From an uncultured Methanosarcinales archaeon (GTDB taxonomy: Archaea; Nanobdellota; Nanobdellia; Woesearchaeales; UBA525), in the NCBI GenBank assembly GCA_964396935.1, contig CAYNGK010000003.1, positions 1-30,971 on the forward strand: a stretch of 30,971 nucleotides of DNA, in the 5' to 3' direction. The notes below the pieces were generated by a model that was given only the letters and a program-made list of their open reading frames with translations, had not been told where the DNA came from and searched no databases. Position numbers and translations under genes: made by a program. Of this stretch, positions 13,877 to 17,835 are shown one piece after another (position 1 is the stretch's first letter; each line of letters starts with the position of its first letter).

Positions 13877-15679
13877 ATGGTGGACCACCGCAAGATCCTG
13901 CTCGCGTTTGGCATGTTCTTTCTCCTCTTGGCGTTCTTCGCGCACATGAATGCCACGGGATCGCGCGCAGACGAGCTCACGCTGCTGACAGTCGCGGACA
14001 CCAGCACCGGCGCGATGGGCGGCACCGCCAGCCTGCGCCTCGAGGTCAGGCCCGGCACCGGCGCGATCTTCATCGACAGCTTTCCCCTGACGCGCATCGA
14101 TACGCAGGCGAGCGCGCGCTACGCGCAGCAGGTGGCGTGCGATCATCTCGATATCGATTGCAGCCAGTACGATTTCTACTACACCATCCGTGCGAACACC
14201 GCCGTTGTCGGCGGTCCGAGCGCAGGTGGCGCGATCGCGGTCCTCACCGCCTCGGTGCTCTCGGGCCTGCCGATCGACCATTCGATCGCGATGACCGGCA
14301 CGATCAACAGCGGCGGCGTGATCGGGCCGGTCGCTGGCGTGCGCGCGAAGATCGCTGGCGCACGTCAAGCAGGCATCAAGACCGTGCTCATCCCGGTGCT
14401 CGCCGGTCCGGAGAATGGCACGATGGCACCCGACGGCAACGCAACGCCGCCGGCCAACGGTTCCGTTGAGGAACCGTTCGGGCCGCTGCCTCGTGGCCGC
14501 GTGCCGGAGCTCTCCGGATCGGGTGTGGAGGTGTTCGCGGTCAGCACGCTCGATGAGGCGCTCGCCGCATTCACCGGACGAGCACCTTCGCCGCCGCCGG
14601 CTCCCCTGACACCGCCGCCGCAGTACACCGAGCGCATGCGCGCGATCGGCGAAGGATTGTGCGCGCGCAATGCGCAGCTGCGTGCGCAAGCGGACCAGCG
14701 CGGGCTCGCATATGGGGATCCGAACAACTACACGCAACGCATCGCGGCGGTTCCCGTCGAGGAAGGATACGCGCGCGCATCGCTGTGCTTCAGCCAGGAT
14801 ATCGAGATCGCCACGATCATCGCGCAGGCCATGACCCCGGCGCAGCAGGACGCGCTCGCGCGTGAGGTGCGTTCGCGCATCGAGGATGCGCGTGGCACCG
14901 TTGGGAATGTGACGTTGCGTACGGTCGGTGATCTCGAGGTCGCGGCGATCGTACGCGAACGCATCGCGCAGGCGCAATCGCTGCTCGACGGGCGCAACAG
15001 GACCGATTTGAACGCGTCGGCTGCGGATATCGCGTACGCGGATGAGCGTGTGCGCAGCGCGCAGAGCTGGACTGCCCTGCTTGGCATGTCGGGTGCTCCA
15101 TTGCGTATGGACGAGGAGCGGCTGCGCCGCACGTGCCTTGCGAAGATCGCGGAAGCCGATGAGCGCATCAGCTACGTGCGTGTCTACGCGCCTGGTGCGG
15201 TCGCCTCGGCAGAGGAGAGCCTGCAGCTCGCGTACGCGAGCGACAGCGATCCGGTCCTCTGCATCCTGCATGCTGCGACTGCTGTCGCTGACGCGAACCT
15301 CATCAGCGGCGCTATCGCTGTTGACGCATCACGTGTCGATGATCTCCTCGCCGAGAAGCTCGCTGCCGGCGAACGCGTGCTTGCTGAGCGCCAGGCGCAT
15401 GGCGCGTTCCCGATCCTCGGCTACAGCTACTGGCAGTACGCGTCCCGTCTTGGCGCTGACGCGCCGTACAGCGCGCTCACCTTCGCTGAGCAATCGCTCG
15501 AGCTCGCGACGCTCGATATGTATTTCCCTCCTGAACGCGCGTCCTGGCGCGTGCCGCCGGAAGCGGCGAACGGCGTCGTGTTCTTCAGCTACGGCGCCGC
15601 GTTCATGGTCGGTATCTCCTTGCTGCTGTGGCCGACGGCCGTGACGGCATCGCCGAAGCGACGTCGGCGACGGCGTTGA
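13877..15679 (+). CDS. Membrane-anchored Lon-type (S16) serine protease without an AAA domain (COG1750-like), 600 aa
   Basis: N-terminal signal/TM segment, Ser-Lys dyad GPSAG...TGTINSGG...RAKI, and a C-terminal TM followed by an Arg-rich tail. Confidence 0.88.
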   Translation: MVDHRKILLAFGMFFLLLAFFAHMNATGSRADELTLLTVADTSTGAMGGTASLRLEVRPGTGAIFIDSFPLTRIDTQASARYAQQVACDHLDIDCSQYDFYYTIRANTAVVGGPSAGGAIAVLTASVLSGLPIDHSIAMTGTINSGGVIGPVAGVRAKIAGARQAGIKTVLIPVLAGPENGTMAPDGNATPPANGSVEEPFGPLPRGRVPELSGSGVEVFAVSTLDEALAAFTGRAPSPPPAPLTPPPQYTERMRAIGEGLCARNAQLRAQADQRGLAYGDPNNYTQRIAAVPVEEGYARASLCFSQDIEIATIIAQAMTPAQQDALAREVRSRIEDARGTVGNVTLRTVGDLEVAAIVRERIAQAQSLLDGRNRTDLNASAADIAYADERVRSAQSWTALLGMSGAPLRMDEERLRRTCLAKIAEADERISYVRVYAPGAVASAEESLQLAYASDSDPVLCILHAATAVADANLISGAIAVDASRVDDLLAEKLAAGERVLAERQAHGAFPILGYSYWQYASRLGADAPYSALTFAEQSLELATLDMYFPPERASWRVPPEAANGVVFFSYGAAFMVGISLLLWPTAVTASPKRRRRRR

Positions 15680-15704
15680 GCGCTATCTTCGGATACTCCT
15701 GCGC

Positions 15705-15857
15705 TGAGGTCAGGCAGCGTGCTTCCACGTCGGGAAACGGCCCTGGAAGGTCCCGCCCGACGTTGCCGCCGAGCGGGTCCCTCCCGGGAAAAGAGGTGAG
15801 TTACCAACCGCGAACCTTTGTCGGGATCACGGTTGCGATGAGCGCACGCCTGGTCGT
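15705..15857 (-). ncRNA. Candidate orphan structured ncRNA (~150 nt, closed multi-way junction)
   Basis: Terminal helix CAGGCGUGC (15852-15844) / GCACGCugCCUG (15722-15711) encloses four hairpins, including an 8-bp perfect ACGUCGGG/CCCGACGU stem. The 5' end sits about 26 nt downstream of a TATA box at 15884-15891. No family match was recognised. Confidence 0.55.
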
Positions 15858-15879
15858 ATTTATCCTTTCCCATTCTGAC

Positions 15880-15895
15880 ACCATTTTAAAATGGT
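15880..15895. promoter_or_regulatory. Perfect 16-bp palindrome ACCATTTTAAAATGGT containing a TATA box
   Basis: It equals its own reverse complement. The spacing fits a minus-strand promoter for the candidate ncRNA. Confidence 0.7.
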
Positions 15896-16023
15896 TACAA
15901 GTTACAGCGAAATCGTCACCTTCCATTGACGAATACCGTATCTGCGAATCGGTCATCTGCCGTCGGTGATTCTCCCCGCTTGGGCACAATTCCTTTAAGG
16001 TGATGCGGTGCTGCTGGTTCTCC

Positions 16024-17835
16024 ATGCGTCCGTACCGGGTCCTCGCGAATGCGTTGGGAGTTGCGCTCCTCGCAGCTGGCGCGTTCGCCATGCCTAATCC
16101 CATCGTCAGGCCTCCGCGCGCGGATGCGGTGGCGGACGCCCGTCTCGATGATACGCGACCGTTGGACCTCTCCGTCACCCACAAGCTGTTCCTCACACCG
16201 ATCACAGAACGCCTCGACACCGCCGATGAAGTCCGCCTGGAGCGGTACCTCTGGACTGTCGTGCCGACAGGCCGACGGATCATCTTCCCCGATGAGCAGC
16301 TGCGCCCGGTCGGTTCGGTCGAGCTCACGCCGGAGCAATACCGGCGGTGGGATGCGCTCGCCTCCACGCGCGCGCACCAGTACCTCGACACGATCGCCAC
16401 GCAATCGTTTCGTGTGCGGCTCCCCACGTCGATGCGCAACCGGCGCGTGCCCTGGCGCACCGGCTATGCTGACCGGTTCGTCGACGCGCTCGATCGCGCC
16501 GCTCCTTACATCCCGTATTTGGAATCGATGGCGTCGCAGCGTGGCCTGCCGCGCGACACCTGGCTGCTCGCCGTCCAAGAATCGCTCTTTCGACCTACTG
16601 CGGTGAGCAGCGCCTGGTGCGAGGGCCCGTTCCAGCTCTCACGGCCCGCAGCGCGCACCTTCGGACTCGTCGTCCCGCGGCTCGCTCGCGGCGGGAACAC
16701 GACGCAAGTGAATGAGAGCCTGCATCCGCTCCTCGCAGCGCAGGCAGCGTTCGACCTGCTGTACGCGTACGCGTACCACACGGGCGGCTTCCTCACCGGT
16801 GTGAGCGCGTACCACACGGGACCTGGAAACCTTGCGAAGATGCGGATCCTGCAGCTACGCCATCCGCAATGGCGTTCACAGGAGGACGCAGGAGTACCGG
16901 CGATGATCGCCGAACGCTATCTGCACGGCATCGACGCTGCGCTCTTTGACCCCGTCACGGAGATGTCCTCGCTATCGGGCGATGAGACCGAATCGCCAGG
17001 GGACGTGACCCTCGAGAGCACTGTGGCGGCCGATGGCCTCTCCTGGATCGTGAGCGACGGTTGGCGGCATCCGAGCAATACGCGATCGTACAGCGGATAC
17101 CGTCGGGAGAGCTCCCTCTATGTGCCGCGGTTCCTCGCGCTGCGCAACGCTCTGCGCCGGGATGCGCTCTTTCGGACAGAACGGGAACTCGCCGGTATGC
17201 GACGCATTCCCGCAGGGAACGGCACGTGCGGTCCTCGTGGTCCGTACACCACGGACCTGCCGGTGTGCTGGATCTCCGCGCCCGTGTTCCATGATGTGGA
17301 GCGATACGCAAAAAAGGCGCTCGATCTCGATATGGTCGCTATCCGCTACCGCACGCCGCCGCGCGCGGGCAAAGAGCCCCTCACGGGTGAGGACCTCGCA
17401 CAGGCGGTCGGTGACTTGTCGGTGTTCACCGCCTATAACCCGCACATCCCACGCAAGGCCCGTATCCCGGAAGGCACCCGCGTCGCGTTGCCGCCGGGGA
17501 CCGCTGCCTCGTTCATCACCGCGCGTCCCTTGCGTGATCTCCTCGATACCGCACCCGTGACTACCTATCGCGATGGAGTGATGAGCGCATCATCGGCGCC
17601 TACAGCACCGCTTGCGGAGGATCGGGAATACGCGCGCCTCGCGCTCCTGCGCAGCGACGGCCGATACGACGAGGTCGATCCGGAGGCGGTCTGCGCGCTC
17701 GCGGACCGCATGGAAGCGATCGACGACGGATCGCTCACGCGCTCGTTGCAGCGACGCGTGTCGCGCCTGGACTGCGCGCTCACAAGCCATCGCTCCTCCC
17801 GATCGCTCCTGCGCCTCGCCGATGAGCATCGGTGA
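16024..17835 (+). CDS. Secreted MltD-like lytic transglycosylase (SLT domain), 603 aa
   Basis: Signal peptide MRPYRVLANALGVALLAAGAFA. SLT motifs LAVQES (Glu186), GPFQL...AARTFGL, VSAYHTGPG and LYVPRFLA, then a LysM-like segment AYNPHI...IPEGTRVALP. TTTAAG box at ~15993-15998. Confidence 0.82.
   Translation: MRPYRVLANALGVALLAAGAFAMPNPIVRPPRADAVADARLDDTRPLDLSVTHKLFLTPITERLDTADEVRLERYLWTVVPTGRRIIFPDEQLRPVGSVELTPEQYRRWDALASTRAHQYLDTIATQSFRVRLPTSMRNRRVPWRTGYADRFVDALDRAAPYIPYLESMASQRGLPRDTWLLAVQESLFRPTAVSSAWCEGPFQLSRPAARTFGLVVPRLARGGNTTQVNESLHPLLAAQAAFDLLYAYAYHTGGFLTGVSAYHTGPGNLAKMRILQLRHPQWRSQEDAGVPAMIAERYLHGIDAALFDPVTEMSSLSGDETESPGDVTLESTVAADGLSWIVSDGWRHPSNTRSYSGYRRESSLYVPRFLALRNALRRDALFRTERELAGMRRIPAGNGTCGPRGPYTTDLPVCWISAPVFHDVERYAKKALDLDMVAIRYRTPPRAGKEPLTGEDLAQAVGDLSVFTAYNPHIPRKARIPEGTRVALPPGTAASFITARPLRDLLDTAPVTTYRDGVMSASSAPTAPLAEDREYARLALLRSDGRYDEVDPEAVCALADRMEAIDDGSLTRSLQRRVSRLDCALTSHRSSRSLLRLADEHR

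Follow-up and report, generated by a model that had tools for sequence, protein, structure and literature searches.

A publicly undescribed small-RNA family of DPANN archaea with an invariant anti-Shine-Dalgarno heptamer in its linker

We analysed a 30,971-nucleotide (nt) stretch of DNA (the whole stretch is hereafter called the window) from an uncultured archaeon registered under Methanosarcinales and placed in the order Woesearchaeales by GTDB (contig CAYNGK010000003.1, positions 1 to 30,971 of the forward strand; the genome is referred to as G000). Between two plus-strand protein genes, one encoding a protein with a Lon_C domain and the other a protein with an SLT domain, lies a minus-strand gene for a non-coding RNA of ~100 nt (~15836 to 15735), as placed by comparative analysis. 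The features of the locus are listed in Table 1. An earlier reading made from the letters of the stretch alone (hereafter, the sequence-only reading) had proposed a structured minus-strand RNA, and strong structure was borne out for the minus strand only: the minus-strand and plus-strand fold z-scores are -4.5 and -0.46, respectively, for the interval 15705-15860, and -4.8 and -1.08 for the refined 102-nt transcript (15836-15735). The predicted fold of the refined transcript consists of two hairpins and a 16-nt unpaired linker between them. Transcription from its own promoter, composed of a B recognition element (BRE) and a TATA box, and both transcript ends are predictions.

The linker contains CUCACCUC followed by four U's (15800-15789), comprising the heptamer UCACCUC (15799-15793; also called the seed below) and the U-run (15792-15789). 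The heptamer exactly matches the anti-Shine-Dalgarno sequence at the 16S rRNA tail (...GGAUCACCUCCU) and is unpaired in the predicted folds of the window RNA and of most close relatives. This invariant copy of the anti-Shine-Dalgarno sequence in a single-stranded linker is the defining feature of the RNA and had been missed in the sequence-only reading.

A coding function was considered and rejected: the 94-amino-acid (aa) minus-strand open reading frame (ORF) at 15589-15873 has its start on the upstream side of the TATA box, and in relatives it is interrupted, as their U-runs and hairpins differ in length by non-multiples of three. No minus-strand gene follows the RNA gene in the window, and both flanking genes are on the plus strand, in agreement with the sequence-only reading. 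That reading had also excluded tRNA, 5S rRNA, signal recognition particle (SRP) RNA and RNase P RNA. ARAGORN detected no tRNA in the window, a search of the window against Rfam 15 yielded nothing at the gathering score and only noise at E-values up to 10, and the SRP RNA, RNase P RNA, 5S and 16S genes of this genome sit on other contigs. Twelve homologous loci likewise matched no Rfam family. Neither conserved boxes of C/D or H/ACA guide RNAs in an alignment of 87 homologues nor a match to an Rfam snoRNA was found. The family is not described in Rfam 15 or in the literature searched, and we regard it as a genuine small-RNA family that is publicly undescribed.

Table 1. Features at and around the RNA gene (window coordinates)
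Feature	Position	Strand	Basis or remark
Lon_C (S16) domain membrane-anchored protein gene, convergent neighbour	13877..15679	plus	Pfam Lon_C, E=5.5e-13
3' tail CCGUUU, probable termination site	15735..15740	minus	covariance-model match stops at 15735; U-tail in homologues
Terminal hairpin CCC-G-GGAGGG...CCUUCC-A-GGG	15741..15788	minus	covariation; GC-rich upper stem co-varies freely
Single-stranded linker GGUAACUCACCUCUUUU	15789..15804	minus	unpaired in fold; contains the conserved motif
5' hairpin, arms AACCGUGA.../...UCGCGGUU	15805..15835	minus	minimum-energy fold; sequence lineage-specific
Predicted transcription start	15833..15836	minus	~24-27 nt downstream of TATA centre; TATA-to-gene spacing at this genome's tRNA genes
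BRE-like GGAAAGG (15870-15864) and TATA box ATAAATA (15863-15857)	15857..15870	minus	aligns with family consensus CGAAA-NN-TTTAWATA
Conserved upstream block TGTAACCATTTTAAAATGGTGTCA	15876..15899	minus	spacing to BRE/TATA shared by most of 99 family promoters
SLT lytic-transglycosylase-domain protein gene with signal peptide, divergent neighbour	16024..17835	plus	Pfam E=3.4e-6

A BLAST comparison with 40 relatives identified the element in eight of them. In these relatives, the blocks occur in a fixed order: the palindrome of the upstream block, (A/T)TAAATA ~10 nt further on, a variable stretch of 40-70 nt, the motif (an invariant ACUCACCUC) with four to eight U's after it, a hairpin (CCCGGGAAGG...CCUUYCAGGG) and a U-rich tail. 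The upper stem of the hairpin changes freely among the relatives, and all sequence 3' of CAGGGCC is unconserved. In the place of the 5' hairpin, close relatives carry a hairpin of unrelated sequence that ends 3-8 nt before the motif. An exact-pattern scan of 185,579 species, each represented by a single genome, returned 87 matches. About 78 of these, all with the hairpin, are in metagenome-assembled genomes (MAGs) labelled Woesearchaeota, Nanoarchaeota or Nanobdellota or bearing labels from binning pipelines, and the remaining ~9 are bacterial, have no hairpin and are attributable to chance.

A covariance model built from 78 sequences was run on an even sample of 151 genomes of the order (~136 families) and matched 133 of them, including 102 of the 116 high-quality genomes. 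In a phylum-level sample, it matched 132 of 151 genomes; this sample includes 34 genomes that belong to other orders of the class, of which 28 were matched. Five apparent misses that were checked downstream of the Lon-like gene turned out to be divergent copies, with, for example, CCU...AGG as hairpin bases. The control phylum, to which a Methanogenium MAG belongs, gave only weak chance matches (22-29 bits) in 9 of 101 genomes. Among three of these that were inspected, one (G308:C76:1199-1251) lies antisense to an ordinary ribosome-binding site (RBS), AAAAAAAGAGGTGAGTACAAAATG, which demonstrates complementarity between the linker and a generic archaeal RBS context.

This genome has a single copy of the RNA gene; many others have two to four, often as head-to-tail modules behind one promoter. 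Such tandem modules would yield two short RNAs or, by read-through, one two-module RNA. Duplications of the whole module are seen at G165:C2:126586-126705, G090:C33:22933-23060, G126:C28:6802-6925 and G068:C140:12615-12737. In IMG/VR, 80 loci were fetched from 91 pattern matches, and three of them are true family members (30-33 bits), each with AUCACCUCUUUUU, the hairpin and GGGUUU (L232, 972-1044; L261, 2702-2782; L201, 2318-2374), on contigs that are classed as viral by the database. The other 77 loci, mostly from one metagenome, are not family members.

The covariation of the terminal hairpin was examined in an alignment of 87 distinct sequences. Canonical pairs occupy 95.2% of the pair cells; the corresponding values are 75.3% for shuffles and no more than 65% after sliding of the partners. 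Compensatory changes are present in 11 of the 13 hairpin pairs, with 235 double-change cells compared with 60 expected. Because this alignment was fitted to the covariance model, it favours the structure; independently, MAFFT and RNAalifold recovered the same helix, with 9 of 13 pairs compensated. In 77 of the 87 homologues, the predicted fold is more stable for the RNA-sense strand than for its complement (mean -25.0 versus -18.8 kcal/mol), and ~170 G-U pairs are tolerated on this strand only, becoming A-C mismatches on the plus strand. The invariant columns are UCACCUC, at least three U's (run of 3-8) and the closing pairs CC...GG. Immediately 5' of the heptamer, 64 sequences have C, 21 have A and two have a gap, and the base after it is always U. 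At least three U's within 6 nt after the hairpin are present in 82 of the 87 homologues. Termination in archaea works without a hairpin.

The central proposal of the sequence-only reading, an independently transcribed archaeal non-coding RNA, thus holds, with transcription itself predicted, and the checks it had suggested (Rfam, homologues and covariation) led to the family of DPANN archaea described above. Its first hairpin is retained in the minimum-energy fold. Most of its remaining architecture was not upheld. It had drawn a terminal helix (15852-15844 with 15722-15711) closing a junction of four hairpins, whereas the conserved unit has two hairpins and a linker. The helix can form here, but its arms lie outside the conserved unit and it is kept in no relative. 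In place of the second, third and fourth hairpins there is a single long terminal hairpin, to which the second and third are sub-optimal alternatives. Since the sequence 3' of CAGGGCC is unconserved, the closing helix, the fourth hairpin as drawn and the second UCCCGAC copy, which lies 3' of the U-tract and on which a supposed alternative fold or pseudoknot depended, all fall outside the conserved unit.

The promoter of the window RNA (GGAAAGGATAAATA) matches the tRNA promoters of this genome in type and in distance from the gene. The position of the TATA box and the tRNA-type spacing therefore put the predicted 5' end at the positions given in Table 1 and the length of the RNA at ~100 nt. The sequence-only reading had estimated ~150 nt, with different ends, and had placed the 5' end relative to a TATA sequence (TTTTAAAA) inside a perfect 16-bp palindrome, ACCATTTTAAAATGGT (15880-15895). 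The palindrome is present as described, but the functional TATA box is ATAAATA with its BRE-like element. The suggestion that a protein binds the palindrome fared better and is plausible, as the palindrome is kept family-wide ~10 nt upstream of BRE/TATA; the part that made it the TATA site has been dropped. When 99 family promoters were aligned at the TATA box, the consensus was TTTGT(T/A/C)ACCATT-N4-AATGGT...CGAAA-NN-TTTAWATA. Many lineages have a further, related site close to the start site, immediately past the TATA box, and the half-sites of the upstream and start-site copies change in step (ACCATT, ACTACT, ACCACT), which is the pattern expected of two operators for one dimeric factor. 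Therefore, the palindrome is plausibly an operator for a dimeric transcription factor, and the promoter is probably controlled by such a factor bound there. The inverted-repeat score of the operator is barely above that of shuffles in this AT-rich DNA (33 versus 15 perfect 6+6 repeats among 105); the positional consensus of the 99 promoters is the better evidence. Two more promoters of this genome, at ~625-700 of contig C78 (near 638) and ~35275-35345 of contig C2 (near 35321), have the palindrome (ACCAYT-N4-ARTGGT) followed by BRE and TATA. Both drive leaderless protein genes (208 and 437 aa), in which Pfam detected no families, and these genes may form a small regulon of the palindrome-binding factor.

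Across the family, the distance from the TATA box to the motif ranges from 34 to 113 nt; therefore, in some species the RNA would be reduced to a minimal form of ~55-60 nt, with its 5' end only a few bases ahead of the heptamer. From this comparison, the 5' domain is dispensable, and the core consists of the seed, U-run, hairpin and tail.

The complement of the linker was examined at translation starts. The perfect 12-mer complement of the heptamer and U-run, AAAAAGAGGTGA, occurs 658 times in the 151 genomes, with one or two occurrences per genome representing the RNA gene itself, and a reversed-pattern control gave mostly zero or one per strand. Among 40 sampled sites outside the RNA gene, 25 are followed, after 2-11 nt, by a start codon that opens an ORF of 50 codons or more. 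The GC-rich genome G000 has sites at start codons that differ from the complement by one or two mismatches (for example, AAAAGAGGTGAA-N4-ATG), and GAGGTGA is the letter permutation that stands most often before an ORF start (23.5% versus a median of 12.5%). Other counts of Shine-Dalgarno usage in this genome are noisy owing to crude ORF calls, because a genome of 62% GC has many spurious ORFs. The linker is complementary to the generic strong RBS of this group over up to 12 nt, whereas the 16S tail (CCUCCU) pairs with only the 7-8-nt core. At six of seven G000 sites, the duplex with the linker is stronger than that with the 16S tail, a comparison that serves as illustration only, as the sites were chosen for complementarity to the RNA. 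In addition, a 5' anti-seed resembling AAAAGAGGUGAG is present in ~38% of the long-form homologues and is predicted to pair with the linker (z below -2; mean duplex energy -10.0 versus -6.3 kcal/mol for shuffles), which indicates the type of pairing partner that the linker has. The window RNA has no anti-seed.

On these grounds, the reading that we prefer, with moderate confidence, is that of an RNA acting in trans, which would pair with ribosome-binding sites (AAAAGAGGUGA) in competition with 30S subunits. A dimeric transcription factor on the palindrome would control the BRE/TATA promoter. The linker displays (A/C)UCACCUC and four to eight U's, a copy of the anti-Shine-Dalgarno sequence extended by the U-run, and would base-pair with AAAAGAGGUGA-N3-7-AUG sites. 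Pairing would mask the RBS from 30S subunits, so that translation of Shine-Dalgarno-led genes would be lowered or re-programmed. An Sm/Hfq-type chaperone, for which the LSm protein of the genome is a candidate, would bind the module formed by the U-run, hairpin and 3' U-tail.

The locus has the traits of an RBS-masking small RNA (sRNA), namely its own predicted promoter and a terminator-like end, flanking genes on the other strand and an exposed linker complementary to the Shine-Dalgarno sequence. In terms of sequence and structure, no homology to named sRNAs in Rfam was found, and the RNA is thus taken to work like this class and not to be a member of it. In archaea, sRNA41 and sRNA154 of Methanosarcina mazei are intergenic sRNAs that mask ribosome-binding sites (PMC5867862). 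The RNA described here resembles them in its intergenic position, its own promoter and an exposed anti-RBS sequence, and the proposed action is similar, including the masking of sites inside polycistronic mRNAs. The M. mazei RNAs, however, are genus-restricted, have specific targets and share no sequence or structure homology with this RNA, which is conserved at the phylum level, carries the invariant 16S-tail heptamer, is often tandem and has a function proposed from sequence. The csRNAs of streptococci have an anti-Shine-Dalgarno linker between two stem-loops, a transcription-factor-controlled promoter and several copies per genome (PMC3091779). The present family shares with them two stem-loops around a stretch complementary to the Shine-Dalgarno sequence, a transcription-factor repeat in the promoter (putative in the present family), a second hairpin as the terminator (here a probable one), several copies per genome and variable 5' parts. 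In contrast, csRNAs are bacterial, CiaR-dependent and also anti-AUG, without homology to this RNA, which has an archaeal BRE/TATA promoter with a palindromic site and a seed extended by the U-run.

Hfq-dependent bacterial sRNAs carry a module of a U-rich stretch, a terminator hairpin and a 3' oligo-U. The same three parts directly follow the seed here: the U-run is invariant, the hairpin co-varies and the U-tail is present in 82 of 87 homologues. An Sm-family protein is encoded in the genome by an LSm domain gene (G000:C21:8423-8614, 77 bits). By analogy, this LSm protein may bind the module; unlike the Hfq-dependent sRNAs, the host is an archaeon, and binding by an Sm-like archaeal protein is a proposal.

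Several points weigh against RBS masking in trans. The 25 sampled RBS sites precede unrelated genes, with one homologous pair among them and no recurrent orthologous target; therefore, no specific regulon emerged. A seed that matches the ribosome's own tail would pair with every Shine-Dalgarno-led gene, which puts its specificity in question. The linker always reads CCUCU and never CCUCC, the best partner of GGAGG, and the 5' anti-seed is predicted to occlude the seed in some lineages. The strict convergent synteny with one gene, described below, would not be explained by a global trans-acting role. Finally, no transcript was recovered: a sludge metatranscriptome (X7) contains 6 of 11 words sampled from 15735-15862 and only 6 of 31 from 15650-15950, those present lying solely within the RNA, but neither this run nor two sister runs gave a contig for the locus.

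A bolder version of the same proposal, which we consider speculative and hold only tentatively, is that the RNA acts phylum-wide as an anti-Shine-Dalgarno in trans, a global switch that turns off Shine-Dalgarno-led mRNAs (for example, in favour of leaderless ones), or as a pre-16S mimic that gates 30S maturation, with the tandem and viral-classed copies tuning or hijacking it. In that version, the global-switch role follows from the duplex with the RBS (AAAAGAGGUGA, 12 bp), which would be longer for the RNA than for the 16S tail. An RNA with an invariant copy of the mRNA-docking sequence of the ribosome in about nine-tenths of the genomes and >100 families must serve a basic role in translation or ribosome biogenesis. 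A large share of the diversity of archaea belongs to the DPANN groups, about whose regulation of gene expression almost nothing is known. One short RNA with one obvious seed, an identifiable promoter operator and defined candidate targets provides a testable entry point. The family also fills a gap in the RNA-family databases, as annotation pipelines leave the gene blank in >100 genomes.

The foremost alternative, which we judge to be unlikely, is that the RNA is a decoy of the 16S tail: with a hairpin, UCACCUC and a U-run in succession, it would imitate the (pre-)16S 3' terminus and so titrate proteins that work there, such as Nob1, Dim2/Pno1, KsgA or initiation factors, or be cleaved by them, and ribosome maturation or initiation would be coupled to its expression. 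The resemblance on which this alternative draws extends beyond the heptamer. The 16S rRNA of this genome (contig C2, 2479-3938) ends in ...CUGCGGCUGGAUCACCUCCU, followed by UUCCCUUUUUCC, and five complete genomes of the group have identical 16S ends that run into a U-tract, so that the order of elements, UCACCUC and then a U-run, is that of the RNA. The window RNA (GCGGUUGGUAACUCACCUCUUUUCCC) is identical to the 16S end and trailer of the same organism at 21 of 23 aligned bases. This is the best-scoring window of the whole 16S rRNA, and its score was reached by 4 of 2000 shuffles. About a quarter of the homologues read AUCACCUC, the exact 16S sequence, and in the window RNA the 3' arm of the 5' hairpin and the linker resemble helix 45 and the tail of its own 16S rRNA. 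Moreover, archaeal Nob1 cuts short RNAs that bear the D-site (PMC3326319). Across the family, however, neither the GGA that precedes AUCA nor the C that closes CCUCC is conserved, 74% of homologues have C instead of A before the heptamer, and the helix-45-like hairpin is present only in close kin of the window. The RNA is encoded outside the rRNA gene, the 16S gene being on another contig, and differs from the 16S tail in the dedicated hairpin after the heptamer and in its own, probably regulated promoter; the full tail GGAUCACCUCC within an rRNA gene was not found here, only UCACCUC being common to both. The 5' anti-seeds and the RBS complementarity also favour RNA-RNA pairing over a decoy. 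A search for Nob1 in the genome with the Pfam model Zn_ribbon_NOB1 gave no match, although this model also fails on almost all archaeal control genomes. The 16S gene of the group has no linked tRNA or 23S gene and runs from ...GGAUCACCUCCU directly into the U-run, which suggests that the primary 16S transcript may end just past the mature 3' end.

Less probable still is a cis-antisense function, in which the RNA would pair with the 3' end or 3' untranslated region of the Lon_C mRNA, or its transcription would collide with that of the Lon_C gene, controlling stability or termination. The same Lon_C-domain gene is convergent with the RNA gene in 57 of 79 loci, and its ORF ends 1 to ~230 nt from the start of the motif. 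The stop codon is inside the RNA gene in 7 to 19 of the 57 loci. In seven of them (L016, L019, L042, L052, L071, L084 and L086), the ORF runs antisense through the hairpin and stops at a TGA in the complement of the seed, and the two genes therefore physically overlap in seven genomes. These read-through ORFs end with the tail ...LPGKKR, and ~10 further loci stop in the complement of the U-tail. Where the RNA occurs, the gene is almost always found as well. An antisense role, however, does not need a heptamer that is invariant throughout the phylum. In addition, 56 nt separate the end of the Lon_C gene from the 3' end of the RNA in the window, the RNA is located away from the Lon-like gene in some genomes (G034 and G052), and extra or tandem copies lie elsewhere in many. 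Co-absence of the RNA and the Lon-like gene was also considered and ruled out, as the gene is present in 37 of 38 genomes regardless of whether the model found the RNA.

A protein sponge or scaffold, in which the repeated motif, U-run and hairpin would bind an RNA-binding protein (for example, an Sm-like one) in the manner of CsrB/RsmZ and would not act on mRNAs, appears just as improbable as the cis-antisense function. Two-module tandem arrays are common, as in G165, G090, G126 and G068, a single-stranded U-run flanked by hairpins is the classical layout of an Sm site, and the LSm gene is at hand in this genome. Yet an Sm site leaves both the invariance of UCACCUC and its identity to the anti-Shine-Dalgarno sequence unexplained, and no candidate protein is co-varying or syntenic with the RNA.

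That the locus holds no RNA gene at all, and is a DNA-only element with a protein-binding palindrome or a terminator for its neighbours, is very improbable: the UUCCCGGGAA of the commonest variant is a DNA palindrome and the hairpin with its U-tail is terminator-like, but the CCCGGG core varies in other families together with its 3' partner, the G-U pairs are tolerated on one strand only, an oriented BRE/TATA promoter is everywhere upstream, and on the strand of the Lon-like gene the hairpin is followed by A's, not U's (AAAAGAGG, with the weak plus-strand fold given above), so that no terminator of that gene was recognized.

Regarding the neighbouring genes, the C-terminal end of the Lon_C-domain protein (15560-15679) contains a transmembrane helix and a Lys/Arg-rich tail, and on the far side of the Lon-like gene are genes for a Bud32-like kinase and Rpr2. 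The SLT-domain gene has its own TATA box ~26 nt before the ATG and is probably leaderless. In most relatives, its position is held by a gene for a 175-aa protein of unknown family; this gene, a gene for a PLD-like protein and, further out, CDC48 are the upstream genes, all on the strand opposite to the RNA gene.

DNA nearly identical to that of the locus is indexed, as judged by word shares only, in metagenomes from wastewater, sludge, soil, wetland and freshwater, and a 206-nt contig from an activated-sludge DNA run is identical to positions 15725-15930 of the window.

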